From the NCBI GenBank assembly GCA_951406725.2, contig OX597816.1:181412001-181476000 (forward strand): a DNA stretch of 64,000 nt, written 5' to 3'. A model generated the notes under the pieces. The model was not told the origin of the DNA, made no database searches, and saw only the letters and a list, made by a program, of their open reading frames with translations. Each line of letters opens with the position of its first letter. Position 1 is the first letter of the stretch. The stretch is from Octopus vulgaris (taxonomy: Eukaryota). Shown in pieces: positions 12,105 to 61,925 of the stretch. The position numbers and the translations under genes are program-made.

Positions 12105-14079
12105 AGAAATTTTTACGGAAATTAAGTATTAAAGGGTTTTTACAGAAAATAAAGTATTATACGATTTGAATCGCAATTAGTCAGTGAACCAAAGAGCCAG
12201 TATCGGAGGAACTAGAAAGAAGCCGTCAACAACATAAAAACACAAAACCGTTGTAAAAGTAAATGAGAAATTTTTACAGAATATAAAGTATTAACGTTTT
12301 GAAGCGCAATTTGTCAGTGAACCAAAGAGCCAGTATCGGAGGAACTAGAAAGAAGACGTAAACAACATAAAAACACAAAACCGTTGTAAAAGTAAATGAA
12401 AAATTTTTACAAAAAATAAAGTATTAAACTAAAGTATTAAAATAAAGTATCGAAGGAACTAGAAAAAAAATGCGCAAAAATACAAAACCGTTGTAAAATT
12501 TTTACGGAAAATAAAGTAGTAGAGGGTTTGAATTGCAATTTGTCAGTGAACCAAAGAGCTTGTATCGAAGGAACTAGAAAGAAGCCGTGAACAACACAAA
12601 AACACAAAACCGTTTGATGAGTAAAGAAGAAATGTTTACAGAAAATAAAGTATTAAAAGGTTTGAATCGCTATTTGTCAGTGAACCAAAGATCCAGTACC
12701 GAAGGAACTAGAAAAAAGCCGTAAACAACAGAAAAACACAAAACCGTTGTAAAGGAAACTAAGAAATTTTTACAGAAACTAAAGTTTATTATCGGTTTGA
12801 AGCGCAATTTGTCGGTGAACGAAAGATCAAGAATCGATGGAACTAAAAAAAGGCGGAAACAACAGAAAAACAGAAAACCGTTGTAAAAGTAAACGAGAAA
12901 TTTTTTCGGAAAAGTAAGTATTAAACGGTTTGAATTGCAATTTGTCAGTGAACGAAAGAGCCAGTATCGAAGGAACTTGAAAAAAGACGTAAATAGCAGA
13001 AAAACAAAACCGTTGTAAAAGTAAATGAGAAATTTTAACGGAAAATAAAATAGTAAACGTTTGAAGCGCAATTTGTCAGTGAACCAAAGATCCAGTATCG
13101 AATGATATAGAAAAAGCCGTTATAACACAAAACCGTTGTAAAACCGTTGTAAAAGTAAACAAGAAATTTTTACAAAAAAAAAGTATTAAACGGTTTGAAG
13201 TTCAATTTATCAGTGAACCAATGAGCCAGTATCGACGGAACTAGAAATATTTACTTTTACAACGGTTTTGTGTTTTTATGTTGTTTCCGACTTTTTTGTA
13301 GTTCCTTCGATACTGGCTTATTGGTTCACTGTCAAATATCGCTCCAGACCGTTTATATTACTTTATTTTCTGTAAAAATGTCTCATATACTTTTACAACG
13401 GTTTGGTGTTTTTCTGTTGTTTACGGCTTTTTTCTAGTTCCATCGATACTGGTTCAAGTTCAGTGAACCAAAGAGCCAGTATCGAAGGAACTACAAAGAA
13501 GCCATAAACAACAGATAAACAAAACCGTTGTAAAAGTAAATAAGAAATTTTTACAGGAATAAAGTATGAAACGGTTTGGAGCGCAATTTGTCTGAACTAA
13601 AGAGCCAGTATCGACGGAACTAGAGAAAAGCCGTAAAAAACCTTTTCATACTTTATTTTCCGTAAAAATTTCTTATCTACTTTTACAATGGTTTTGGGTT
13701 TTTCTTTTAATTCCGACTTTTTTGTAGTTCCTTCGATACTGGCTCTTTGGTTCACTGAACTAGAACCAGTATCGATGGAACTAGAAAAAAGCCGTAAACA
13801 ACAGAAAATCAAGACTGTTGTAAAAGTAAATAAGAAATTTTTACATACGATAACGTATTAAACGGTTTGAAGCGGAATTTGTCAGTGAACCAAAGAGCCA
13901 GTATCGAAGGAACTACAAAAAAGACGGAAACAAGAGAAATAAACCAAACCGTTGTAAAAGTAGATAAGAAATTTTTACGGAAAATAAAGTAGTAAAAGGT
14001 TTGAAGCGCTGGTCAGTGAACCAAAGAGCCAGTATCGAAGGAACTAGGAAAAAGCCGTAAACAACACAAAAACAAAACC

Positions 14080-14564
14080 TATTTCTTTATTACCCACTAG
14101 GGGCCATATAGAGGGGACATTACAAACATTGGGGGACATGGAACATCACAATTACATAGATATGAGTGAAATGAATTTTGAAAATGATATATGAAAGCGG
14201 TGCCACTTACCTGTCCTTTTGTTTTCACTGTCACCTGAATGTTCATTCCCAATACGAAGACCATCCATATCCATTCTAGGTATAACCAAGCTTTCGATCC
14301 ATCATTCTCACTGCCTGTTCCAGTTCCTCCTCAGACGTAGACAAGTCTGTTAGGGAATCAAAGTCCATTTCCTTCTGTCTGACAGACCGAAAACGGCCGC
14401 CCGGACAGAAAAAGTGTAACGCGTAGCACCAGCGAAACGCGAAACCGCATCAACGACGTTCAAAATTTCACAACAACAACAATTCACTTTTTGTTCTTTT
14501 TTCTTTTTTAACCGAATTTTACAGAGCGCAAAAAAACACAACCGTTCAACGCAAAAAAACACGA
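14080..14564 (-). mobile_element. Internally deleted copy 1 of the ORF1-only non-LTR element
   Basis: Near-identical to 17537-17734 joined to 18845-19133. Retains the 5' leader, the ORF1 start (MDFDSLTDLSTSEEE) and the 3' tail. Confidence 0.85.
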
Positions 14565-15292
14565 TCAGTGAACCAAAGAGCCAGTATCGAAGGAACTAGA
14601 AAAAAGCCGTAAACAACAGAAAAACAAAACCGTTGTAAAAGTAAATAAGAAATTTTTTCAGAAAATAAAGTATTAAACGGTTTGAAGTTCAATTTGTCAT
14701 TGAACCAAAGATCCAGTATCGAAGGAACTAGAAAAAAGCCGTAAACAACAGAAAAACAAAACCGTTGTAAAGGTAAATAAGAAATTTTTTCAGAAAATAA
14801 AGTATTAAACGGTTTGAAGTTCAATTTGTCAGTGAACTAAAGATCCAGTATCGAAGGAAATAGAAAAAAGCCGTAAACAACAGAAAAACACCGAATCGTT
14901 GTAAAAGTATATGAACATTTTTTACAGTAAATAAAGTAATAAACGGTTTGTAGCGATATTTGTCAATGAACAAAAGAGCCAGTATCGAAGGAACTATAAA
15001 AAAGCCGTAAACAACAGAAAATCAAGACTGTTGTAAAAGTAAATAAGAAATTTTTACAGAAGATAACGTATTAAACGGTTTGAAGCGGAATTTGTCAGTG
15101 AACCAAAGAGCCAGTATCGAAGGAACTACAAAAAAGACGGAAACAAGAGAAATAAACCAAACCGTTGTAAAAGTAGATAAGAAATTTTTACGGAAAATAA
15201 AGTAGTAAAAGGTTTGAAGCGCTGGTCAGTGAACCAAAGAGCCAGTATCGAAGGAACTAGGAAAAAGCCGTAAACAACACAAAAACAAAACC

Positions 15293-15777
15293 TATTTCTT
15301 TATTACCCACTAGGGGCCATATAGAGGGGACATTACAAACATTGGGGGACATGGAACATCACAATTACATAGATATGAGTAAAATGAATTTTGAAAATGA
15401 TATATGAAAGCGGTGCCACTTACCTGTCCTTTTGTTTTCACTGTCACCTGAATGTTCATTCCCAATACGAAGACCATCCATATCCATTCTAGGTATAACC
15501 AAGCTTTCGATCCATCATTCTCACTGCCTGTTCCAGTTCCTCCTCAGACGTAGACAAGTCTGTTAGGGAATCAAAGTCCATTTCCTTCTGTCTGACAGAC
15601 CGAAAACGGCCGCCCGGACAGAAAAAGTGTAACGCGTAGCACCAGCGAAACGCGAAACCGCATCAACGACGTTCAAAATTTCACAACAACAACAATTCAC
15701 TTTTTGTTCTTTTTTCTTTTTTAACCGAATTTTACAGAGCGCAAAAAAACACAACCGTTCAACGCAAAAAAACACGA
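15293..15777 (-). mobile_element. Internally deleted copy 2 of the ORF1-only element
   Basis: Near-identical to copy 1, offset by 1213 bp. Confidence 0.85.
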
Positions 15778-16505
15778 TCAGTGAACCAAAGAGCCAGTAT
15801 CGAAGGAACTAGAAAAAAGCCGTAAACAACAGAAAAACAAAACCGTTGTAAAAGTAAATAAGAAATTTTTTCAGAAAATAAAGTATTAAACGGTTTGAAG
15901 TTCAATTTGTCATTGAACCAAAGATCCAGTATCGAAGGAACTAGAAAAAAGCCGTAAACAACAGAAAAACAAAACCGTTGTAAAGGTAAATAAGAAATTT
16001 TTTCAGAAAATAAAGTATTAAACGGTTTGAAGTTCAATTTGTCATTGAACCAAAGATCCAGTATCGAAGGAACTAGAAAAAAGCCGTAAACAACAGAAAA
16101 ACACCGAATCGTTGTAAAAGTATATGAACATTTTTTACAGAAAATAAAGTAATAAACGGTTTGTAGCGATATTTGTCAATGAACCAAAGAGCCAGTATCG
16201 AAGGAACTATAAAAAAGCCGTAAACAACAGAAAATCAAGACTGTTGTAAAAGTAAATAAGAAATTTTTACAGAAGATAACGTATTAAACGGTTTGAAGCG
16301 GAATTTGTCAGTGAACCAAAGAGCCAGTATCGAAGGAACTACAAAAAAGACGGAAACAAGAGAAATAAACCAAACCGTTGTAAAAGTAGATAAGAAATTT
16401 TTACGGAAAATAAAGTAGTAAAAGGTTTGAAGCGCTGGTCAGTGAACCAAAGAGCCAGTATCGAAGGAACTAGGAAAAAGCCGTAAACAACACAAAAACA
16501 AAACC

Positions 16506-16965
16506 TATTTCTTTATTACCCACTAGGGGCCATATAGAGGGGACATTACAAACATTGGGGGACATGGAACATCACAATTACATAGATATGAGTAAAATGA
16601 ATTTTGAAAATGATATATGAAAGCGGTGCCACTTACCTGTCCTTTTGTTTTCACTGTCACCTGAATGTTCATTCCCAATACGAAGACCATCCATATCCAT
16701 TCTAGGTATAACCAAGCTTTCGATCCATCATTCAAACGTAGACAAGTCTGTTAGGGAATCAAAGTCCATTTCCTTCTGTCTGACAGACCGAAAACGGCCG
16801 CCCGAACAGAAAAAGTGTAACGCGTAGCACCAGCGAAACGCGAAACCGCATCAACGACGTTCAAAATTTCACAACAACAACCATTCACTTTTTGTTCTTT
16901 TTTCTTTTTTAACCGAATTTCACAGAGCGCAAAAAAACACAACCGTTCAACGCAAAAAAACACGA
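16506..16965 (-). mobile_element. Internally deleted copy 3 of the ORF1-only element, with an extra ~25-bp deletion
   Basis: Same junction CCATTC-TAGGTATAACC as copies 1 and 2. Lacks TCACTGCCTGTTCCAGTTCCTCCTC near 16733. Confidence 0.85.
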
Positions 16966-17536
16966 TCAGTGAACCAAAGAGCCAGTATCGAAGGAACTAG
17001 AAAAAAGCCGTAAACAACAAAAACAAAACCGTTGTAAAAGTAAATAAGAAATTTTTTCAGAAAATAAAGTATTAAACGGTTTGAAGTTCAATTTGTCATA
17101 GAACCAAAGAGCCAGTATCGAAGGAAATAGAAAAAAGCCGTAAACAACAGAAAAACACAAAACCGTTGTAAAAGTAAACAAAAATTTTTTACAAAAAATA
17201 ACGTATTAAACGGTTTGAAGCGCAATTTGTCAAGGAACTAGAAAAAAGCCGTAAACAACAGAAAAACAAAACCGTTGTAAAGGTAAATAAGAAATTTTTA
17301 CATACGATAACGTATTAAACGGTTTGAAGCGGAATTTGTCAGTGAACCAAAGAGCCAGTATCGAAGGAACTACAAAAAAGACGGAAACAAGAGAAATAAA
17401 CCAAACCGTTGTAAAAGTAGATAAGAAATTTTTACGGAAAATAAAGTAGTAAAAGGTTTGAAGCGCTGGTCAGTGAACCAAAGAGCCAGTATCGAAGGAA
17501 CTAGGAAAAAGCCGTAAACAACACAAAAACAAAACC

Positions 17537-19133
17537 TATTTCTTTATTACCCACTAGGGGCCATATAGAGGGGACATTACAAACATTGGGGGACATGGAA
17601 CATCACAATTACATAGATATGAGTAAATTGAATTTTGAAAATAATATATGAAAGCGGTGCCACTTACCTGTCCTTTTGTTTTCACTGTCATCTGAATGTT
17701 CATTCCCAATACGAAGACCATCCATATCCATTCTTACTCCGAAATACTCCTCCATATTTTCCACGAATTCATCGCTCATTCTTGTATCTTTCACCTCCCA
17801 ATTCTCCCTTTCACACCTCAACGCAAACTCATCTATATTCTTCTTTTCCAGCACTGCATATCTGGTCTCACCTATTTATACTCCTCCATTACCCTTTTCA
17901 CTTCTTTCTGTTCAGTCATAATATAAATGTTCGGCCTGGGTTCGATTTCAAACTCTTGTCTGTCTGTATTATTTTTTTCTTTTGTTTTCTTGTTGGAGGG
18001 GAGCGGGTGGGTTCACTGTCTGCAGGGATAGGGTGGGTCTGAGAGGGTGTGGGTGGTGTTGGGGTGGATTGGTGTTCTATGTTATTTTCTTTTCCTCGTA
18101 TTCTCCTCTTCCTCTTATTCCCAGCTTCCTTCCATTTCTGTGAATTCTCTTCTACTGTCTCCTTCTCCTCTGGTTTCTGCTTCTCTCTCTGTGGTTCGGA
18201 ATCCATTTCTTTCACTGAGGGAGGGCAGAAGGCTCTTATGTGACCCCTCAGGCCACACTTGTAACAACGTGGAGCTCTGCCCTCCACCCCACACTCTCAT
18301 GATCACGTCTCCCAATCTGATGCTTTCCGCCAGGTCCACCAGTACCTCGTTCTCTGCTTGCACGTTCAGCTCCACTGTTACGCCTCTCCAGCCCTCGGTC
18401 ATAACCGAGGCATGGAGAATATCCACTTCCTCCTCGTGGCCGCTGATCACAGCCGCCACAATCCACTCTGCCTCCACGTTTGGTGGCACTCCCTCGACCT
18501 TTACTCGTGTAATTTTTCTGTTTAAATACGTAGGCAAAAGTGTTACCTTTTCGGATTTCACCGCCTTCGCCGCCATCTTCCTTGCTGCATTCTCACTTTG
18601 AAAATGTACCACTACAGTACCATACTTTGATCCTCGAGTCAGAAAATTAATTTCCTCCATTCCATGTTTACAACTTCTATCTTCTTCCTTTCGTTTGCGA
18701 AAACCCTGTATATAATGGTCCTTTTATCATACCATTCTTTTCTCTTGGGTGTCGGTGCTAGTTCCACCTCACCGCTATCCTTTTTCATATATTTCTGGTA
18801 ACTTGGCACCCCTTTCTCTTCCGCCTTCTTGGTTACACCGGCATAGGTATAACCAAGCTTACGATCCATCATTCTCACTGCCTGTTCCAGTTCCTCCTCA
18901 GACGTAGACAAGTCTGTTAGGGAATCAAAGTCCATTTCCTTCTGTCTGACAGACCGAAAACGGCCGCCCGAACAGAAAAAGTGTAACGCGTAGCACCAGC
19001 GAAACGCGAAACCGCATCAACGACGTTCAAAATTTCACAACAACAACCATTCACTTTTTGTTCTTTTTTCTTTTTTAACCGAATTTCACAGAGCGCAAAA
19101 AAACACAACCGTTCAACGCAAAAAAAAACACGA
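17537..19133 (-). mobile_element. ORF1-only (HAL1-like) non-autonomous L1/Tx1-type retroelement, longest copy
   Basis: 5' leader, a frameshifted ORF1, then a short 3' UTR ending GCCCCTAGTGGGTAATAAAGAAATA. There is no ORF2 between ORF1 and the tail. Confidence 0.75.
17609..18935 (-). pseudogene. L1/Tx1-type ORF1 (gag-like RNA-binding protein with RRM-like region and zinc knuckle), frameshifted
   Basis: ORFs 18639-18935, 18115-18660, 17916-18287 and 17609-17854 chain together. Motifs GTVVVHFQSENAA and ITRVKVEGVPPNV; CCHC knuckle CYKCGLRGHIRAFC. Confidence 0.8.
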
Positions 19134-19533
19134 TCAGTGAACCAAAGAGCCAGTATCGGAAAAAACTTGAAAAAAGCCGTAAACAACAGAAAAACAAAAC
19201 CGTTGTAAAGGTAAATAAGAAATTTTTTCAGAAAATAAAGTATTAAACGGTTTGAAGCGCAATTTTTCACTGACCCAAAGAGCCAGTATCGAAGGAAATA
19301 GAAAAAAGCCGTAAACAACAGAAAATCAAGACTGTTGTAAAAGTAAATAAGAAATTTTTACAGAAGATAACGTATTAAACGGTTTGAAGCGGAATTTGTC
19401 AGTGAACCAAAGAGCCAGTATCGAAGGAACTACAAAAAAGACGGAAACAAGAGAAATAAACCAAACCGTTGTAAAAGTAGATAAGAAATTTTTACGGAAA
19501 ATAAAGTAGTAAAAGGTTTGAAGCGCTGGTCAG

Positions 19534-22259
19534 GGAAACTACTCTAGTTAAGGAATTAGAGGAAGCCATGAAAACTGGCTCTGCGGCTCAGGTGGCGTCC
19601 AAGAGACTGGTGTTAAACCAGCACCTCGAGGCCAAACACATGGGCTGCATTGTCAGGGCTAGAATCCGTCATATGGGATGTGAAGGAATCAACGCCGTGA
19701 GATGGGCCCGAGTGGTGGAAGCCCGGAATGGCAACGATGCCACGATTCGATCTTTGAAGAACCAACAAGGTGAGTTGATAGACGAACCCGAGGAGATGTG
19801 TGAGGCCTTTCAGGAGCACTTCGCTCAGCTTTTCGGTGAGTGCGGCGGGCTGGATAGGAGGAGGGCCTTTACGGACCTACTCGACGGGCTGCCGCGCTTA
19901 TCGGGGCGAGATGCGGAGGGCTGTGAAGGGCCAATCACGCCTGAGGAGGTGGTGGAGGCAATGGTTGACTGCGGCGCGGGCAAGGCGCCGGGTTTGGATG
20001 GTCTACCCTACGAGTTATATAAGAGTATGCCAGACTTGTTCGGGCACCTACTGGCGGAGGTCTATGCGAACTGGCAGCAGAACGGGCTTATACCCAGATC
20101 TGTGCGCCGGGGAGTGGTGACTCTCGTCAGAAAGGACCCGAGCAAGGGGGAGTGCATTGATAATTTCAGGCCCATCACTCTGCTAAACACAGAGTTGAAG
20201 ATTTTGGCCAAAGTGTTATCGAAAAGATTGGCGCGTGTCGCGGATGGTCTGATCGGAGAGGCACAGACATGTGCCGTTCCGGGCAGATCCATTCAGGATA
20301 ATCTCCATCTAATGCGGTACACTATAGAGGGGTTTAATAATGATTCTGGCAAGGGTGGGGTACTGGTCCATTTAGACCAATCTAAAGCCTTTGATAGGGT
20401 CGACCATCGTTACCTGGTATCTGCCCTGGCACAGTTCGGGCTGAGCCTTGGCTTCCTCAGGTGGATTATCCAAATTTACGACAACATCGACTCGGTAGTT
20501 CGGGTGAACGGCTTCTTGTCGAAGCCGTTCAAAATCAAACGCTCGGTTCGTCAAGGGTGTCCGCTCTCCCCGCTTTTGTATGTGATGGCTCTTGAGCCAT
20601 TACTGCGAAAACTGAGCGGCATCCCGAGACGGCCAGGTAATGGAAAATCAGTGTCAGCGTACGCGGACGACATCACCATCATCGTGACCGAAATGGACCA
20701 CCTATGTAAAGTAGGCAAGGCCATAGAGGTTTACGAGACGGTGACAGGAGCAAAAGTTAATCGCGAAAAGTCAGTCGGCTTGCAACTCGGCACCTGGAGA
20801 GGCAAGTCGATGCCTCCTGACAGCGTCGTGGGACGTTGGACGGAGGGTCCGATTAAACTGCTAGGGGTCTGGTTCGGTCCAGACCTCCAAATAGAGAAGA
20901 ATTGGGGCGAGGTAACGAGCAAGGTGGCTGCAGTAGCCAAGACCTGGTCTTGGCGGTGGCTATCCTTGAAAGGGAGGGCGGAGGTGGCCAATGTGTTTAT
21001 CGCATCGGTTATCACCTACCGCCTTTCCGTCGTTCCTTGCCCCGATTCGTGGTTGACCAAGTTGGAAAGACAGCTCTTCTACTTCTTGTGGAAGGGTAGG
21101 AAACCACTTGTGAAACGCTCTACTTGCTGTCAACAACCGTTAAAGGGTGGGCTAGGGATGCCTTGGCTGATGATGCGCAGACATGCGCTGAGGTTAAGAC
21201 ATCTGTGGCTCTACCTGGATGGTGAACGGGTGTGGTCTCCGTTAGCAAAACTGATGTTTCCCAAGTTCACTAGTTTCGGTGGACGGGAAACCTGGCCGAA
21301 TCGTAGATCGAAACTTGGTACATGGCATACGGAGTGTCGCAAGGCTCTCCTGCTATTCCGTCGCTCGGGCAACGCCTGCGGTGGGGGTTCCACCACATTC
21401 TTCTATAGAGGGTTGGTAGAGGCGAAATGTGAAGACACCTTGGGGGAAACCCTGGGTCTCGATGATAATCAGCTGGCCAGTCTGTTCCGACGTACGTTCG
21501 AGCCGAAGACACTGGACAACTTCCAGAAGTCTCTGGCATGGCAATGCTACAGAGGAGCTCTACCTGTTCGGGATAAACTCGCAAGGCACGGTGGCCAAGA
21601 CAGTCCGATGTGTCCAAGATGCGGGCGGGATAGGGAAACCGTCCCGCACGCTATTGTTCATTGTTCGGTCGTGTCTGAGGTGTGGGTTTATGCCGAACAG
21701 CTGTTGTCAAGCACACGAAGAGTACAGCTGTCGACTGAGTGTATTAAAAAAATTGACCCACCAGATTTCCTCGCGAAAGAAGGTAAGAATTGTTTTCTCG
21801 TTGTGGTTGCAATTGCGAAAGAGGTGATATGGAAGACGAGAATGAAAGGTATACGGTCAGGTAAGTTCATATCCGGCCCTGGGTTGATGAATTACTTCAT
21901 CTACCACCTGAAAAGGAAGATAGGGCTGGAGAGAAAATGCCTGACTAAAAGAGTGTATGAAGAACGATGGAAGGATGTAGCACGGAAGTTGAGAATGGAT
22001 GACACCACATAAATGTAAATCAGAACGAAACCAAAAGTATCAGTGGTGAGGCGGGGCTCGTGGGGTCCGAGCTGAACCCGCCCCCACTCCACCTGTAATG
22101 TATTCCGGTCTGTTTTTTTCATTCGATTTTATAATTTTTGCATTTTTGTGAATTTTTGAATTTTTAATCTCATCCTTTTTGTAACCCCATCCGAGAATCT
22201 GACCCCATATCAGGTTGTATTGTCCCCTCTTTGTTGGCCCCTTGTGGGTAATAAAACAG
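19534..22259 (+). mobile_element. 5'-truncated Tx1/L1 LINE including its 3' UTR
   Basis: Starts abruptly after satellite GAAGCGCTGGTCAG. The 3' UTR ends TGTCCCCTCTTTGTTGGCCCCTTGTGGGTAATAAAACAG. Confidence 0.88.
19568..22012 (+). CDS. Non-LTR retrotransposon ORF2 (L1/Tx1 clade): RT plus C-terminal CCHC, with the APE endonuclease lost by 5' truncation
   Basis: 814-aa open frame with KAPGLDG, NFRPITLLNTELKILAK, LDQSKAFDRVDH, VRQGCPLSPLLY, AYADD, LSLKGR, KGGLG and CPRCGRDRETVPHAIVHC. Confidence 0.95.
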   Translation: MKTGSAAQVASKRLVLNQHLEAKHMGCIVRARIRHMGCEGINAVRWARVVEARNGNDATIRSLKNQQGELIDEPEEMCEAFQEHFAQLFGECGGLDRRRAFTDLLDGLPRLSGRDAEGCEGPITPEEVVEAMVDCGAGKAPGLDGLPYELYKSMPDLFGHLLAEVYANWQQNGLIPRSVRRGVVTLVRKDPSKGECIDNFRPITLLNTELKILAKVLSKRLARVADGLIGEAQTCAVPGRSIQDNLHLMRYTIEGFNNDSGKGGVLVHLDQSKAFDRVDHRYLVSALAQFGLSLGFLRWIIQIYDNIDSVVRVNGFLSKPFKIKRSVRQGCPLSPLLYVMALEPLLRKLSGIPRRPGNGKSVSAYADDITIIVTEMDHLCKVGKAIEVYETVTGAKVNREKSVGLQLGTWRGKSMPPDSVVGRWTEGPIKLLGVWFGPDLQIEKNWGEVTSKVAAVAKTWSWRWLSLKGRAEVANVFIASVITYRLSVVPCPDSWLTKLERQLFYFLWKGRKPLVKRSTCCQQPLKGGLGMPWLMMRRHALRLRHLWLYLDGERVWSPLAKLMFPKFTSFGGRETWPNRRSKLGTWHTECRKALLLFRRSGNACGGGSTTFFYRGLVEAKCEDTLGETLGLDDNQLASLFRRTFEPKTLDNFQKSLAWQCYRGALPVRDKLARHGGQDSPMCPRCGRDRETVPHAIVHCSVVSEVWVYAEQLLSSTRRVQLSTECIKKIDPPDFLAKEGKNCFLVVVAIAKEVIWKTRMKGIRSGKFISGPGLMNYFIYHLKRKIGLERKCLTKRVYEERWKDVARKLRMDDTT

Positions 22260-22780
22260 CTACGTAAGGTTGGTAGTTTATTTATGATGTGTTCAGAATC
22301 AGTTCTGCTGACGATCATTAGACGTAAGTTGAATGTGAAATCACGGTGATACAGAACTAAATTCATTTTTTAAATGTCTTGCTTTGAAAAACTGCATTTG
22401 GGTATGATTAGTATAATTTTGGTAGTAATGACTTTGTCCCTCCTAGTGTGAGGCATTTATGTGTAATAATGCCCTCTATACAATATAGATATAATTAATT
22501 TGTTCAAAAGAAAAAAATTATTTTCGGATTCTTTTCTTTTATGAGGTTTTCACGCTAGCTACCCGATAATTTCTTGTTAAGATCCCTTATTAAGAGATTA
22601 TCCTTAATTGTTAAACTTATTCCGAAATACTTTTCATTACCCGATATGCAGTTCGTAAAAAGCCCGCCATTTACCGGATATATGATTTATAAACATTACA
22701 TGTGCTTGGCCGGAGTGAGCAGTTGTCTATTCGTCATCGCTACGTAAGGTTGGTAGTTTATTTATGATGTGTTCAGAATC

Positions 22781-22880
22781 NNNNNNNNNNNNNNNNNNNN
22801 NNNNNNNNNNNNNNNNNNNNNNNNNNNNNNNNNNNNNNNNNNNNNNNNNNNNNNNNNNNNNNNNNNNNNNNNNNNNNNNN
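22781..22880. other. Assembly gap (100 N)
   Basis: Run of N. Confidence 1.
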
Positions 22881-25800
22881 ACATCAACAGGGTATTTTTG
22901 TATGTATGTATGTATGTATGTTTGTATGTATTTCATTATTCAGCTTTATTTCAAGATTTTTTGCCAATAGAGAAAAAGCCGGTTTCTAACCTAGATCCAA
23001 GACTCCTTCAATGGAATTTAAACAACATCAACAGGGTATTTTTGTATGTATGTATGTATGTATGTTTGTATGTATTTCATTATTCAGCTTTATTTCAAGA
23101 TTTTTTGCCAATAGAGAAAAAGCCGGTTTCTAACCTAGATCCAAGACTCCTTCAATGGAATTTAAACAACATCAACAGGGTATTTTTGTATGTATGTATG
23201 TATGTATGTTTGTATGTATTTCATTATTCAGCTTTATTTCAAGATTTTTTGCCAATAGAGAAAGAGCCGGTTTCTAACCTAGATCCAAGACTCCTTCAAT
23301 GGAATTTAAACAACATCAACAGGGTATTTTTGTATGTATGTATGTCTGTATGTTTGTATGTATTTCATTATTCAGCTTTATTTCAAGATTTTTTGCCAAT
23401 AGAGAAAAAGCCGGTTTCTAACCTAGATCCAAGACTCCTTCAATGGAATTTAGACAACATCAACAGGGTATTTTTGTATGTATGTATGTATGTATGTTTG
23501 TATGTATTTCATTATTCAGCTTTATTTCAAGATTTTTTGCCAATAGAGAAAGAGCCGGTTTCTAACCTAGATCCAAGACTCCTTCAATGGAATTTAAACA
23601 ACATCAACAGGGTATTTTTGTATGTATGTATGTATGTATGTTTGTATGTATTTCATTATTCAGCTTTATTTCAAGATTTTTTGCCAATAGAGAAAAAGCC
23701 GGTTTCTAACCTAGATCCAAGACTCCTTCAATGGAATTTAAACAACATCAACAGGGTATTTTTGTATGTATGTATGTATGTATGTTTGTATGTATTTCAT
23801 TATTCAGCTTTATTTCAAGATTTTTTGCCAATAGAGAAAAGCCGGTTTCTAACCTAGATCCAAGACTCCTTCAATGGAATTTAAACAACATCAACAGGGT
23901 ATTTTTGTATGTATGTATGTATGTATGTTTGTATGTATTTCATTATTCAGCTTTATTTCAAGATTTTTTGCCAATAGAGAAAAAGCCGGTTTCTAACCTA
24001 GATCCAAGACTCCTTCAATGGAATTTAAACAACATCAACAGGGTATTTTTGTATGTATGTATGTATGTATGTTTGTATGTATTTCATTATTCAGCTTTAT
24101 TTCAAGATTTTTTGCCAATAGAGAAAGAGCCGGTTTCTAACCTAGATCCAAGACTCCTTCAATGGAATTTAAACAACATCAACAGGGTATTTTTGTATGT
24201 ATGTATGTATGTATGTTTGTATGTATTTCATTATTCAGCTTTATTTCAAGATTTTTTGCCAATAGAGAAAAAGCCGGTTTCTAACCTAGATCCAAGACTC
24301 CTTCAATGGAATTTAAACAACATCAACAGGGTATTTTTGTATGTATGTATGTATGTATGTTTGTATGTATTTCATTATTCAGCTTTATTTCAAGATTTTT
24401 TGCCAATAGAGAAAAAGCCGGTTTCTAACCTAGATCCAAGACTCCTTCAATGGAATTTAAACAACATCAACAGGGTATTTTTGTATGTATGTATGTATGT
24501 ATGTTTGTATGTATTTCATTATTCAGCTTTATTTCAAGATTTTTTGCCAATAGAGAAAAAGCCGGTTTCTAACCTAGATCCAAGACTCCTTCAATGGAAT
24601 TTAAACAACATCAACAGGGTATTTTTGTATGTATGTATGTATGTATGTTTGTATGTATTTCATTATTCAGCTTTATTTCAAGATTTTTTGCCAATAGAGA
24701 AAAAGCCGGTTTCTAACCTAGATCCAAGACTCCTTCAATGGAATTTAAACAACATCAACAGGGTATTTTTGTATGTATGTATGTATGTATGTTTGTATGT
24801 ATTTCATTATTCAGCTTTATTTCAAGATTTTTTGCCAATAGAGAAAAAGCCGGTTTCTAACCTAGATCCAAGACTCCTTCAATGGAATTTAAACAACATC
24901 AACAGGGTATTTTTGTATGTATGTATGTATGTATGTTTGTATGTATTTCATTATTCAGCTTTATTTCAAGATTTTTTGCCAATAGAGAAAAAGCCGGTTT
25001 CTAACCTAGATCCAAGACTCCTTCAATGGAATTTAAACAACATCAACAGGGTATTTTTGTATGTATGTATGTATGTATGTTTGTATGTATTTCATTATTC
25101 AGCTTTATTTCAAGATTTTTTGCCAATAGAGAAAAAGCCGGTTTCTAACCTAGATCCAAGACTCCTTCAATGGAATTTAAACAACATCAACAGGGTATTT
25201 TTGTATGTATGTATGTATGTATGTTTGTATGTATTTCATTATTCAGCTTTATTTCAAGATTTTTTGCCAATAGAGAAAGAGCCGGTTTCTAACCTAGATC
25301 CAAGACTCCTTCAATGGAATTTAAACAACATCAACAGGGTATTTTTGTATGTATGTATGTATGTATGTTTGTATGTATTTCATTATTCAGCTTTATTTCA
25401 AGATTTTTTGCCAATAGAGAAAGAGCCGGTTTCTAACCTAGATCCAAGACTCCTTCAATGGAATTTAAACAACATCAACAGGGTATTTTTGTATGTATGT
25501 ATGTATGTATGTTTGTATGTATTTCATTATTCAGCTTTATTTCAAGATTTTTTGCCAATAGAGAAAAAGCCGGTTTCTAACCTAGATCCAAGACTCCTTC
25601 AATGGAATTTAAACAACATCAACAGGGTATTTTTGTATGTATGTATGTATGTATGTTTGTATGTATTTCATTATTCAGCTTTATTTCAAGATTTTTTGCC
25701 AATAGAGAAAAAGCCGGTTTCTAACCTAGATCCAAGACTCCTTCAATGGAATTTAAACAACATCAACAGGGTATTTTTGTATGTATGTATGTATGTATGT

Positions 25801-26630
25801 TTGTATGTATTTCATTATTCAGCTTTATTTCAAGATTTTTTGCCAATAGAGAAAAAGCCGGTTTCTAACCTAGATCCAAGACTCCTTCAATGGAATTTAA
25901 ACAACATCAACAGGGTATTTTTGTATGTATGTATGTATGTATGTTTGTATGTATTTCATTATTCAGCTTTATTTCAAGATTTTTTGCCAATAGAGAAAAA
26001 GCCGGTTTCTAACCTAGATCCAAGACTCCTTCAATGGAATTTAAACAACATCAACAGGGTATTTTTGTATGTATGTATGTATGTATGTTTGTATGTATTT
26101 CATTATTCAGCTTTATTTCAAGATTTTTTGCCAATAGAGAAAAAGCCGGTTTCTAACCTAGATCCAAGACTCCTTCAATGGAATTTAAACAACATCAACA
26201 GGGTATTTTTGTATGTATGTATGTATGTATGTTTGTATGTATTTCATTATTCAGCTTTATTTCAAGATTTTTTGCCAATAGAGAAAGAGCCGGTTTCTAA
26301 CCTAGATCCAAGACTCCTTCAATGGAATTTAAACAACATCAACAGGGTATTTTTGTATGTATGTATGTATGTATGTTTGTATGTATTTCATTATTCAGCT
26401 TTATTTCAAGATTTTTTGCCAATAGAGAAAGAGCCGGTTTCTAACTAGATCCAAGACTCCTTCAATGGAATTTAAACAACATCAACAGGGTATTTTTGTA
26501 TGTATGTATGTATGTATGTTTGTATGTATTTCATTATTCAGCTTTATTTCAAGATTTTTTGCATCAACAGATCCAAAGCTCCTTCAATGGAATTTAAACA
26601 ACATCAACAGGGTATTTTTGTATGTATGTA
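22881..26630. repeat. Homogeneous 144-bp tandem array, about 26 copies
   Basis: Unit ACATCAACAGGGTATTTTT(GTAT)n...GCCGGTTTCTAACCTAGATCCAAGACTCCTTCAATGGAATTTAAACA starts at 22881, 23025 and so on, with very few variants. Confidence 0.97.
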
Positions 26631-27944: not shown

Positions 27945-28152
27945 TGGCTGGCAGCATCGTTAGCACGCCGAGGTGAAATGCTTAGCGGCATTTCGTCCGT
28001 CTTTACGTTCTGAGTTCAAATTTCGCTGGAGTCGACTTTGTCTTTCCTCCTTTTGGGGGTTGATAAAATTAGTACCAGCTGAGTACTAGGGTCCATTTGA
28101 TAGATTTACTCTTTCCCTAAAACTACTGGCCTTGTGTCAAAATTTGAAACCA
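27945..28152 (+). mobile_element. tRNA-derived SINE with a Meta-like central domain
   Basis: GGCAG.ATCGTTAGCACGCCG...GTTCAAATT..GC...GTCGACTTTG.CTTTC.TCCTTT.GGGG..GATAAAAT.AGTACCAG. Confidence 0.75.
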
Positions 28153-29583: not shown

Positions 29584-29967
29584 TTCGTTCCTTTATTGCC
29601 CACAGGGGGGCTAAACATAGAGGGGACAAGCAAGGACAGACAAAGCGATTAAGTCGATTATATCGACCCCAGTGCGTAGGCAAAGTCGACCTCGGTGGAA
29701 TTTGAACTCAGAACATAACGGCAGCCGAAATACCTATTTCTTTACTACCCACAAGGGGCTAAACACAGAGAGGACAAACAAGGACAGACAAACGGAGTAA
29801 GTCGATTACATCGACCCCAGTGCGTAACTGGTACTTAATTTATCGACCCCGAAAGGATGAAAGGCAAAGTCGACCTCGGCGGAATTTGAACTCAGAACGA
29901 AACGGCAGAGGAAATACGGCTACGCATTTCGCCCGGCGTGCTAACGTTTCTGCCAACTCGCCGCCTT
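29584..29967 (-). mobile_element. Dimeric tRNA-derived SINE with a Tx1-like 3' tail and a 16-bp target-site duplication
   Basis: TSD TGCATTTTCATAAGCA at 29568-29583 and 29968-29983. The two units each end GCCCC.TGTGGGYARTAAAG. Confidence 0.9.
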
Positions 29968-31700: not shown

Positions 31701-32249
31701 AGATCAGTTTCTCCCTAATTATTCCTCCCGTGTCCTATGACATGGCAGATATGTTGGTATATGGAGTCGAAATATAAAGGTACACTTTTTTTTGCTTCTT
31801 TGCATTTTCTTTCTAGATAGGACCTATTGTACTCCACTTCAGGCTTTCAAAGTTCCATCTTTGAACTTTTCTTCTTAAACATCTCAAATGTAAGATCACT
31901 TCCCTGAAGACGGACGCTCGTCTCATCCTATGATTTTTACGGATCACAGAGCCCCCAGAAACAGCTGTTGGATTTGTAATACTTTTCCTCCAACCCTTTC
32001 GGTTTAAATATCATTTGCACTCTGTGTATTTCGCGTATTTAATATGTTGACAGAGGGGAAACTGTGTGGAAGCCTAACATACACACACACACACTCACGC
32101 ACACACACACCCATCCACACACTGGGTCATCCCATAAATAATGCAGTTTTTCGATTACAAGAACTAAAAGTCGGAGGGGGACGAGATAAACTACCTGCAT
32201 CAACTTGCTATAAAAGCAGGTAGTAATTTTACCTTGTCTTATTCTTATT

Positions 32250-32392
32250 TCTTTAATGCCCACAAGGGGCTAAACATAGAGGGGAAAAGATGAAAGGCAA
32301 AGTCGACCTCGGCGGAATTTGAACTCAGAACGTAACGGCAGATGAAATACCGCTCAGCATTTCACCCAGGGTGCTAACGTTTCTGCCAGCCT
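32250..32392 (-). mobile_element. Internally deleted copy of the Tx1-tailed SINE
   Basis: GCCCACAAGGGGCTAAACATAGAGGGG joined to ATGAAAGGCAAAGTCGACC. Flanked by the imperfect repeat CCTTG(T/C)CTTATTCTTA. Confidence 0.75.
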
Positions 32393-37877: not shown

Positions 37878-38325
37878 GGCTGAATCGTTAGCACGCCGGA
37901 CAAAATGCTTAGCAGTATTTCGTCTGCCGCTACGTTCTGAGTTCAAATTCCGCCGAGGTCGACTTTCATCCTTTCGGGGTCGATTAAATAAGTACCAGTT
38001 ACGCATTGGGGTCGATATAATCGACTTAATCCGTTCGTCTGTCCTTGTTTGTCCTCTCTGTGTTTAGCACCTTGTGGGTAGTAAAGAAATAGGTATTTCG
38101 TCTGCCGCTACGTTGTGAGTTCAAATTCCGCCGAAGTCGACTTTGCCTTTCATCCTTTCGGGGTCGATTAAATAAGTACCAGTTACGCACTGGGGTCAAT
38201 ATAATCGACTTAATCCGTTTGTCTGCCTTTCATTCTTTCTGAGCCGATAAAATATGTACCACTTGAACCCTGGGGTCGATCTCTTACCAGAAATTGCTGG
38301 CCTAGTACTAAAATTTGAAACTAAT
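37878..38325 (+). mobile_element. Multimeric Tx1-tailed tRNA SINE
   Basis: The first unit ends GCACCTTGTGGGTAGTAAAGAAATA and restarts at GGTATTTCGTCTGCCGC. Confidence 0.85.
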
Positions 38326-42609: not shown

Positions 42610-43472
42610 TGATGGCTGCCCCCTCGTTATCGAGTATGGCCATTGCACGAAGCCTAACTGTTATTGGTGATCGAATGTGACTTTTTAGCCCAGCTAAAGA
42701 TCTACAATGTCTTGTACAGATTTGGCAATTAAAACCTTTACCGGCCAACAGCCGGCTGTAGTTGTAACTGTGTTTCATGTACCTTTGCATGTCGTTTAAG
42801 TCCTCCTGCCGAATTACACTCTCTTCTACATGCCCGACAGATATGATTAGTATGGTGTGTTACACCACCACCAGTGGTCAGGTTGTCACTCATCTGTCTC
42901 GCTTTATGACTACGAAGATGACTCTTGAGTCCAGCTTTACTGCGGCAGGGTCTTGCACAGGCACTGCATGTCAGCATCATAGGAAGACCCTGACCATCTG
43001 GAAGTGTAACAGCGATGCCCTTCCTGACATCCCTCCTTACTTTCTCATGTGCAACTCGAGATTTCTCAAAAGTAGCTATCCCCTCGTGCACAATCCTTCT
43101 CCACCTGCTACGATCAATAACTATGCCTTCCCATGTGTCAGGAGAGATGCAAGCATCTCATAAGGAAGCCTTCAGCAAGTCCTTATACCTCTTTTTTGGT
43201 TTATGTGGAGGTCGTTCTCCTTTAGCTAACTCTCCATAAAAGAGTCACTTTGGCATCCTTGAATCCTTCATCCTGACCAGATGACCACTCCATCTGAGCC
43301 TTTGCTTTAACACAAGAGCTTCTATACTTTCACACCGAGAGCCTTCCAATATTTCAAGATAACTGATGCGGTCCTTCCACTTAATGTCATAGATCCGTCT
43401 GAGACACATCTGATGGAAACGTTCCAGTTGTTTAAGGTGGTATCGATATGTGATCCATGTCTCGCAAACCGG
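42610..43472 (-). pseudogene. RTE-clade LINE 3' fragment with C-terminal C2H2 zinc fingers
   Basis: CETWITYRYHLKQLERFHQMCLRRI..W.DRIS, RLRWSGHLVRMKDSRMPK, then three CxxC...H fingers. Confidence 0.85.
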
Positions 43473-45893: not shown

Positions 45894-47189
45894 CATTGGG
45901 TTAGCAACTAAGTTCCCACCGTTTTTTTAAATTAAAATTTTTTTAAAGGTTTAATAAAAAAATAACAACTAATTAATCAATAATGTGTTCACCTTTGTTG
46001 TTTACAACTTCTCAACGTTCAACAAAATTTTCAATACCTTTTTGGTAGAAATCACCCGATTTCGACTCGAAAAATTGATCCAACCAAGCTATCAATTCTG
46101 CATCAGTATTGAACGAAACTCTGTGCATAGCATTTGAAAGAGATTGAAAGAGGTGGAAATCCGTTGGTGCTAAATCAGGAGAGTACAGTGAGTGTGGCAG
46201 CACTTCCCAGCCATACGTTTGAATGGCTTCCTTGGTCATATTGGCGATATGAGGGCGGGCTTTGTCGTGAAGCAGAAGAACTCCATGCTGCCGATTAGGT
46301 CTTTTCTCTTGAATAGCCGTGTTGGGTCGTTCCATCTGATGAACAAAGAGTTCCGCGTTGACCGTTTGGTTCCCTTCAAGCAATTCGTAATGGATAATCC
46401 CTTCCCAGTCCCACCATACGCACAACATCGTTTTACGCGGATGAAGATCTTGTTTCACGCACAGTGTCGCTTGTTTACCGGGGCTAAGCCATTCCTCATG
46501 CTGCTTCATATTGATGTACAGGCACCATTTTTCGTCGCCAGTAACGATTCGGCAAAGAAATTGTTGCTTGTGTCCATGAGTTGAGCGCTGACGAGCAAGC
46601 AAACCAGTGGAGATTGTGGCTCGTTGATTTTTGTTGTTGTCACTTAAAGCATGCGGAACCCATGCTCCATACTTCTGAACCTTACCCATCGAGTGAAGAT
46701 GCTTCTCCAAAGCAGTGTGGGAGCATTCCATTTTCTCTGCCAGTTTCCATGTCATTTGACAAGAATTTTCGTGCAAGAGTTGGTTTAATCGCTCTTCATC
46801 GAACTCAACTGGACGGCCAGAACGAGGTGCGTCTTTGAGGTCAAAACTTCCATTTTTGAACTTAACATACCAATCGTGAGCCGTTCTTTCAGCTATCGCA
46901 CCCTCTCCATACACAGCACAAATGTCGCGAGCAGCTTTTGCGGCCTTAGAACCTTGATTAAAAACAAAAAGAAGGTGTCGAAAATGCTCGTTTTTCTTAA
47001 CTGGACATTCCATTTAATGATCTGAAAATGAACAAAAATTAACAAAAGTTAATTAGAAAAAAAAAAGTTAAAATCGATTCTAAAATGATTCAAAAATAGA
47101 ATTCTCAAAAAAAATAGATTCCAAAATTTAAAAACACAATAAATCCCAAAATTAAAAAAAACGGCGGGTAATTAGTTGCCAATCCAATA
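45894..47189 (-). mobile_element. Full-length mariner (DD34D) element with TIRs
   Basis: Imperfect TIRs CATTGGGTTAGCAACTAAGTTCCCACCGTTTT and AAAACGGCGGGTAATTAGTTGCCAATCCAATA, flanked by TA. Confidence 0.92.
46012..47013 (-). CDS. Mariner transposase, near full length, with a probable premature stop about 12 codons before the normal end
   Basis: WVPHAL, VTGDEKW, LLHDKARPH and YSPDLAPTDFHLF. The frame continues EVVNNKGEHIID after the stop. Confidence 0.9.
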   Translation of the reverse strand: MECPVKKNEHFRHLLFVFNQGSKAAKAARDICAVYGEGAIAERTAHDWYVKFKNGSFDLKDAPRSGRPVEFDEERLNQLLHENSCQMTWKLAEKMECSHTALEKHLHSMGKVQKYGAWVPHALSDNNKNQRATISTGLLARQRSTHGHKQQFLCRIVTGDEKWCLYINMKQHEEWLSPGKQATLCVKQDLHPRKTMLCVWWDWEGIIHYELLEGNQTVNAELFVHQMERPNTAIQEKRPNRQHGVLLLHDKARPHIANMTKEAIQTYGWEVLPHSLYSPDLAPTDFHLFQSLSNAMHRVSFNTDAELIAWLDQFFESKSGDFYQKGIENFVER

Positions 47190-51619: not shown

Positions 51620-52052
51620 AAGGTGGTGAACTGGTGGAATCGTTATCACGCCGCCGGATAAAATGCTTAGCGGCATTTCTTTCGGCTTTGCGCTATGAGT
51701 TCAAATTTCACCGCGGTCGACTTTGCTGTTTATCCTTTTGGAGCTGATGAAATAAGTACTAGGATCAATGTAATCTACTAGCCCTTTCCCCTAGAATTTC
51801 CTCCTTCCCCTGTAATAGAAAGGATTATTATTATTGAGAATGCGGCGAGTTGGCAGAATCGTTAGGACGCTGGGCAAAATGCTTAGCGGCATTTCGTCTG
51901 CCGTTACGTTCTGAGTTCAAATCCCGCCAAGGCCGACTTTACCTTTCATTCTTTCGGGGTCGATAAAATAAGTACTATTTGAACCCTGGGGCCAATGTAA
52001 TCGAATAATCCCCTCCCTCAAAACTGCTACCCTTGTGGCAAAATTTGAAACC
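51620..52052 (+). mobile_element. Two tandem tRNA-derived Meta-like SINE copies
   Basis: GGCGAGTTGGCAGAATCGTTAG...GTTCAAAT...TTTCATTCTTTCGGGGTCGATAAAATAAGTAC. Confidence 0.75.
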
Positions 52053-52191: not shown

Positions 52192-53142
<951 letters not shown>

Positions 53143-61319: not shown

Positions 61320-61719
61320 TCCGGCCTTCACCATGATAGATCGCTAACCACTTTATTTTCTCTCCTTGTTTCTTTCTGTGTTCCTTTCTCGAAACGTTAA
61401 AGACTTTTTCACTTCCCGAGCGTTATACTAATACATCTGTTTGTTGTCTACACCACCTGTCTTCGTCTTTTGTTGGGTTTTTGTGAATTCTCCCTATATA
61501 TATGCATATATACATATATACATATATGTATGTGTGTGTGTGTGCATTTGTAATACATGTATGCACACATGCACTCACATATAGAGGTTAACTTTATCTT
61601 TCATCCTTCCTGGGTTGAAGAAATAAGTAGGAGTTGAGGACCGGGATCGATGTAATTGATTTTTTCTCAGCCCCGAAATTGCTGTGTCAGAATTTGAAAT
61701 CAGTATAACTTGTAGGGCT

Positions 61720-61925
61720 AAGGCAGCGAGCTGGCAGAATCGTTATTGCGCCGGGCAAAATGCTTAGCGACATTTCATCTGTTTTTACGTTTTGAGTTCA
61801 AATTCCACTGGGGTCAACTTTGCCGGTCATTCTTTCGGGGTCAATGGAATAAGTACTATTTAATTACTGGGATCGATGTAATCGACTTTCCCCCATCCCG
61901 AAATTGCTAGCCTTGTGCCAAAACC
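61720..61925 (+). mobile_element. tRNA-derived Meta-like SINE
   Basis: AGGCAGCGAGCTGGCAGAATCGTTATTGCGCCGGGCAAAATGCTTAGC...GTTCAAATTCC. Confidence 0.75.

Follow-up and report, generated by a model that had tools for sequence, protein, structure and literature searches.

Non-autonomous LINEs in which ORF1 is present are an established kind of element, e.g., HeT-A (Jockey), HAL1 (L1), and Ag-Sponge (CR1), which the accessible part of PMC5786205 lists as bipartite, their protein likely multimerising with that of an autonomous partner. HAL1 is described, in the portion available of PMC5753468, as a non-autonomous L1 derivative that encodes ORF1p alone and has several origins. Such half-LINEs are therefore already known from mammals and insects. 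The excerpts at hand further place Tx1 as a subgroup within the L1 clade and define the Type I LINE ORF1, among the ORF1 types, by an RRM plus a CCHC knuckle (both PMC5203782), describe Tx1 elements as often target-specific (PMC4494074), report an expansion of L1-Tx1 in coleoids (PMC8967140), and characterise stringent SINE-LINE pairs by a common 3' tail with a small hairpin (PMC3747384). The available excerpts of PMC9115989 and PMC3531059 mention no Tx1 element, and the full-text literature, as far as its accessible parts go, yielded no ORF1-only Tx1 or cephalopod LINE, which may already be catalogued in Repbase/Dfam.

This study concerns a window of 64,000 nucleotides from Octopus vulgaris, i.e., the whole stretch of DNA analysed. 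A first-pass annotation had claimed that it holds a LINE-like unit made of a leader, an ORF1, and a tail, with no ORF2, lying inside a satellite. This layout was confirmed on the minus strand at 17537-19133, as was the location, a 134-bp satellite being present on both sides of the unit. The unit is real and was overstated in that annotation; it is a dead, deletion-derived ORF1-only LINE copy that probably stems from a HAL1-like family. Its features are as follows.

17537..19133, minus strand: whole unit, an ORF1-only LINE derivative of 1597 bp
18936..19133, minus strand: 5' leader of 198 nt, rich in T, its 5' end containing a short internal duplication
17661..18935, minus strand: ORF1 remnant, ATG at 18935, frame broken
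18292..18723, minus strand: predicted tandem RRM-like (ferredoxin-fold) region of ORF1, from relatives, model, and fold searches
18225..18266, minus strand: CCHC zinc knuckle (CYKC...H...C) of ORF1
17660..17661, minus strand: join between ORF1 end and 3' segment, at which relatives show an ATG overlapping the stop codon of ORF1
17537..17660, minus strand: 3' segment, likely ~10 final codons of the parent ORF2 and a short 3' UTR
17537..17586, minus strand: 3' tail with a predicted 4-bp hairpin, common to LINE and SINEs

No ORF2 sequence was found inside the unit, three ORF2 relatives matching the window only at 19481-22009, and no tRNA gene or Rfam family was found within it. The arrangement of 5' part, ORF1, and 3' end is that of HAL1, whereas the mammalian ORF1 comprises a coiled coil, RRM, and CTD and that of the octopus unit an RRM, by prediction, and a CCHC knuckle; moreover, HAL1 ends in poly(A) and the octopus unit in a conserved sequence tail, and the latter is known from one insertion. 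Tx1-group LINEs resemble the unit in having an ORF1 of Type I; the ORF2 next to the unit, whose tail is related and which carries RVT_1 and zf-RVT, is of the L1 group, but the unit itself is without ORF2. As in stringent SINE-LINE pairs, a tail of ~45 nt with a small predicted hairpin is common to the half-LINE unit and to LINE and SINE copies; unlike a SINE, however, the unit is protein-coding in origin and has a LINE leader in place of a tRNA head. Joints of tail to head in contigs of two sequencing runs recall HeT-A arrays, whereas HeT-A and Ag-Sponge belong to another clade, and the octopus unit lies in an rDNA-linked satellite, with nothing to suggest a role at telomeres. No head-to-tail array is present at the locus itself.

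ORF1 is dead in this copy. It consists of five pieces spread over three frames, a stop codon ends the reading frame that begins at the ATG after 98 codons, and four breaks (near 18655, at 18287, at about 17960, and at 17877) preclude any full ORF1p. Homologues match piecewise, changing frame at 18287 and near 18660. Contigs of related elements differ in length from the unit by +28 at 18655, -1 at 18287, +10 at 17877, and +15 at 18805-18807, and a piece over 17874-18029 has 5 fewer letters. Since the related contigs, which may stem from ORF1-only or from ORF2-bearing copies, are without the four frame breaks, these are private to the present copy; when the four frame-changing indels of the contigs are counted as lengths, an ORF1 of about 435-436 codons results, ending at 17660. 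The first-pass annotation had the element supply its own RNA chaperone, which is false for this copy, and of its gag-like ORF1 with RRM-like region and knuckle, the predicted folds and the CCHC motif stand, while the single open frame does not.

A search of 1.84 billion representatives with the 202-aa middle frame of ORF1 gave 175 relatives at E<=0.001, of which the best is 39% identical over the matched stretch. For the middle region, a model built on a 112-sequence alignment reached a mean pLDDT of 85 and predicts two ferredoxin-like/RRM-like domains. The top Foldseek rows for this model were tandem-RRM proteins, none at E<=0.001, and a wide fold search returned ferredoxin-like ACT and RRM domains mixed (best Z 7.7), which may simply reflect a common arrangement. 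Leads from the atlas for the RRM-like region were RRM_1 (18%), DUF4780, and PRE_C2HC. The knuckle matched Pfam zf-CCHC at E 0.026, below the curated cut-off, and 9 of 18 aligned sequences matched this family. Given an RRM-like fold together with a CCHC knuckle, the ORF1 is assigned to Type I, the RRM part of this assignment being a predicted fold with weak scores. Regarding selection, 13 of the 38 single-base ORF1 differences from the family are synonymous, against 21-26% expected (p 0.04-0.18); the count draws on 40 listed differences, the 2 outside ORF1 being dropped, with 216 further differences outside the listing. This gives a weak indication of purifying selection on ORF1, in a count that is blind to whether ORF2 was present at the time. 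Word-index protein searches found no longer relatives of two ORF1 pieces, which is weak evidence. In viral contigs, the tail pattern had 0 matches and 0 of 16 knuckle-pattern matches were confirmed; in metagenome contigs, none of 134 matches to the C-terminal piece of ORF1 and 2 of 446 to the knuckle pattern were confirmed. One of these (L001) is a 25-residue match, and the other (L002) was rejected as unrelated, being an AT-rich contig that carries a small knuckle gene.

Three shorter copies of the unit lie beside it in the satellite, which in turn adjoins a partial rDNA unit.

14080..14565, minus strand: short copy 1, 486 bp, lacking 1.1 kb of ORF1 through a deletion
15293..15778, minus strand: short copy 2, 486 bp
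16506..16966, minus strand: short copy 3, 461 bp, with an additional 25-bp deletion
3485..19530, no strand assigned: 134-bp satellite array
1..847 and 903..1061, minus strand: LSU and 5.8S of the partial rDNA unit

The short copies consist of the first 290 and the last 198 nt of the 1.6-kb unit, to which they are ~98% identical, and are 98-100% identical among themselves. All four copies have an identical 75-bp left flank and occupy the same satellite position, and the short ones are spaced 1213 bp apart, within a higher-order repeat of ~1213 bp that surrounds them. The four copies are therefore one insertion duplicated with the satellite and not independent jumps, and the identical flanks rule out, at this locus, that the short copies form a separate mobile family. 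The two 67-bp flanks of a copy differ from each other at 2 places for short copies 1 and 2 and at 6 for the long copy, compared with a median of 7 differences and a 5th percentile of 2 among 91 satellite monomers; because the monomers are so alike, no target-site duplication can be called, and the 67-bp monomer overlap of the flanks would fit either a long target duplication or a deletion of target sequence. Deletions of 1.1 kb and of 28, 25, 15, and 10 bp are seen at the locus.

The tail is found well beyond the unit. Nine tail copies are present in the window, four in the half-LINE array, one in an ORF2 element, and four in short repeats that we take to be octopus SINEs. The elements outside the array are listed here.

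19535..22255, plus strand: 5'-truncated LINE of the L1/Tx1 group, RVT_1 and zf-RVT, 835 open codons, related tail
29586..29965, minus strand: SINE-like repeat, tandem, with two tails in common with the half-LINE
32246..32388, minus strand: further tail-bearing SINE-like copy
37878..38229, plus strand: further tail-bearing SINE-like copy, within a repeat of the family at 37878-38280

The 3' end had been described as the unit's own LINE-type end; this did not hold up, as the tail is common to the ORF2 fragment of the L1/Tx1 group 400 bp away and to the SINE copies. The 4-pair hairpin is predicted in 6 tail sequences, among which no compensatory change was found. The half-LINE unit keeps both element ends, and its tail ends where the SINE tails end. 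The SINE-like family also occurs at 27949-28111, 51620-52004, and 61584-61888, and in some of its copies the 3' part is repeated in tandem directly after the tail. The LINE at 19535-22255 is without an endonuclease; among solved structures its ORF2 is closest to L1 ORF2p (E 7.5e-52 vs 1.6e-26 for R2), and the best named relative of a LINE protein in the window, with 58% identity, is from Argonauta hians. Its 3' UTR is too different for a direct parent of the half-LINE, and it is a related family. Twin-priming inversion, with ORF1 on the minus and ORF2 on the plus strand, was rejected as well, as 400 bp of satellite lie between the two parts and each has its own, differing tail. The 5' junction of this LINE falls within 4-5 bp of the satellite position of the half-LINE 5' end, in opposite orientation, and the position common to both 5' ends is a possible preferred nick site.

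To follow the unit beyond the window, 24 sequencing runs were listed and the contigs of four (X1, X2, X9, and X7) were compared with it. Between 0.2 and 0.49 of the sampled unit words were found in 17 of the 24 runs, under four organism labels, and half of the words was reached in none. Contigs of all four compared runs cover all 30 bins of the unit, the leader included. At 17661, three contigs each in X2, X9, and X7 depart from the reference and show, on the minus strand, a stop codon overlapping an ATG that is followed by ten codons; in X1, one contig piece was listed, with 13 loose letters at this position. The peptide after the ATG fits the residues that precede the endonuclease S-L-N motif in 27 full-length ORF2 relatives (scores 4.7 and 5.7), in a test chosen after looking for which 2.1% of background 5-mers reach 4 and 0.7% reach 6; the loose ends show 30 letters, and the S-L-N motif itself lies beyond them. 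By sequence, it looks like the contigs of X2, X9, and X7 run from ORF1 into the start of an ORF2, and autonomous relatives with both ORF1 and ORF2 are therefore likely to exist. On the other side of the join, the translated letters of the unit resemble the C-terminal residues of the four closest ORF2s, scoring 15 in the short copies and 11 in the long copy, where 0.05% of 76,456 window 11-mers reach 14 and 0.2% reach 10 (this test, too, was chosen after looking). Together, the ORF2-start-like loose ends and the ORF2-C-terminus-like letters after the join suggest a near-exact deletion of ORF2 that began at the stop codon of ORF1 and left about ten codons at the end of ORF2. No contig spanning the join at 17661 was among the 32 pieces listed of 5437.

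Summed contig depth at 17628 (3' segment) relative to 17691 (ORF1 end) was 0.96 in X1, 0.11 in X2, 0.05 in X9, and 0.43 in X7. Such depths do not measure copy number; in addition, X9 is possibly an RNA data set, and 3' UTRs can be exchanged between subfamilies. Within X1, the bin at the 5' end amounts to 0.92 of the 3'-segment bin, and the depth ratios among 5' end, ORF1 end, and 3' segment are 0.84-0.96. For a long autonomous LINE, 3' ends normally outnumber ORF1 ends, through 5' truncation. The observed ratios are the reverse of those that a 5'-truncating full LINE with this 3' end would give, and thus agree with a unit of short length in X1 and, in the other runs, with relatives that carry ORF2 and have a different 3' end. 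Contigs in which the tail (17537) is joined directly to the element 5' end (19104) occur in X1 (depth 1453 and 56) and X2 (depth 39); these joints point to head-to-tail copies or end-to-end template jumps, and the tail in them could be that of a full LINE or of a SINE. Just before the join, ORF1 ends in a word at 17662-17670 (minus strand) that resembles the splice donor consensus and that the relatives keep before the probable ORF2 start. Splicing of ORF2 out of the RNA from this word was considered and rejected, as the join sits 7 nt inside the would-be intron.

The reading we favour, with somewhat better than even confidence, is that the unit is a dead copy of a HAL1-like non-autonomous family in which ORF2 was lost almost exactly. 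In the parent, which would have carried both ORF1 and ORF2, the stop codon of the first would have overlapped the start codon of the second, and a deletion, perhaps via a short shared word, would have joined the last codon of ORF1 to the last ~10 codons of ORF2. The resulting short RNA would retain the promoter, ORF1, and the tail; the leader would drive transcription, ORF1p would coat the RNA, and the ORF2p RT would be borrowed from autonomous relatives, priming at the common 3' tail as in stringent SINE-LINE pairs. One copy would then have landed in the rDNA-linked satellite, where it decayed, as its broken frame attests, and where the insertion was duplicated three more times with the satellite and underwent the further 1.1-kb deletion. 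As for the proposal of a Tx1-derived non-autonomous family, the origin from an L1/Tx1-group LINE and the loss of ORF2 are supported, and a family is favoured, the window copies themselves being one insertion.

The strongest competitor, to which we give appreciable but less than even weight, is a one-off event in which a full autonomous LINE in the satellite lost ORF2 in place, decayed, and was multiplied by satellite turnover, so that no family exists. Four copies alike at 98-100% at a single insertion site, an ORF1 that is broken here, and relatives that continue into an ORF2-like start all agree with it; other copies that carry ORF2 were what the first-pass annotation had named as speaking against its proposal, and this holds in part, as the contigs of X2, X9, and X7 run into such a start. 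A second large deletion demonstrably occurred at the locus, which is deletion-prone, so that ORF2 could be lost in place, and this, like the single site of the four copies, weakens the family reading. On the other hand, a random deletion would rarely have one end at the ORF1 stop and the other just a few codons short of the ORF2 stop (~10 of 4800 places for the first break alone, a figure that ignores short shared words and that the locus was picked for its layout), and in 3 of the 4 runs the ORF1 end is more abundant than the 3' segment. It is this precision of the ORF2 loss, together with the contig depths, that leads us to prefer the HAL1-like family, which gains further from the contig indel lengths bringing the ORF1 frame exactly onto the stop at the join and loses from the chance that the 3' segment is the 3' end of one autonomous subfamily.

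The same scarcity of the 3' segment in 3 of 4 runs also speaks for a chimera, in which a template jump during reverse transcription, made once or a few times, fused the 5' half of a LINE with a 3' end from a different LINE family, and the tail-to-5'-end joints in X1 and X2 suggest that the machinery makes end-to-end joins. A template jump need not land on the ORF1 stop, however, and the first codons of the 3' segment are ORF2-like, as expected from a plain internal deletion, which makes a chimera improbable. Least credible of all is an assembly artefact in a repeat array beside a gap: the satellite context, the N gap at 22781-22880, and the failure of any listed run to reach half of the unit words would allow for it, but the join is present in four copies that differ by few bases, and X9, possibly related to the source, contains the satellite-tail junction at 17496-17627 without a difference. 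A broader version of the preferred family reading, viz. a still-coding Tx1-group ORF1-only family in several octopods with exact ORF2 loss, the tail of an abundant SINE, and HeT-A-like arrays, appears unlikely.

If the HAL1-like family is real, a mollusc half-LINE that combines a Type I ORF1 with a sequence-specific tail in common with SINEs would be another independent origin of ORF1-only LINEs. It would also offer a natural test of whether a passenger RNA competes better for RT when it keeps ORF1. Were it a coding family with arrays, one RT would serve a LINE, a half-LINE, and a SINE, plus a 486-bp offshoot without an ORF. Taken alone, the locus is a modest result, namely a dead insertion carried by satellite turnover.

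The surroundings of the unit are rich in repeats. The rDNA segment at 1-3480 (minus strand) comprises the LSU start, 5.8S, and a duplicated spacer segment, with a GC-rich 215-bp repeat replacing the remainder of 18S; ~70 nt near 1840-1910 presumably represent the 18S end, and nothing more of 18S. The segment looks like an rDNA orphon or rearrangement. The adjoining 134-bp satellite flips orientation near 12105 and several times at 13230-13760. On the far side of the ORF2 element, a 42-bp word occurs twice, 480 bp apart, after the tail of that element (22259-22300) and before the gap (22739-22780). Other coding remnants in the window are listed below.

46012..47013, minus strand: Mariner (Mos1-type) transposase frame, 333 aa, HTH_48 and Transposase_1
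42738..43157, minus strand: C-terminal fragment of another LINE, C2H2 fingers
52367..52966, minus strand: C-terminal fragment of another LINE, zf-RVT

Directly after the 100-N gap lies a 144-bp tandem array (22881-26562; 25.6 copies, 99% matches) with a (TGTA)8 core, in which one frame is open for 912 codons, probably by chance.
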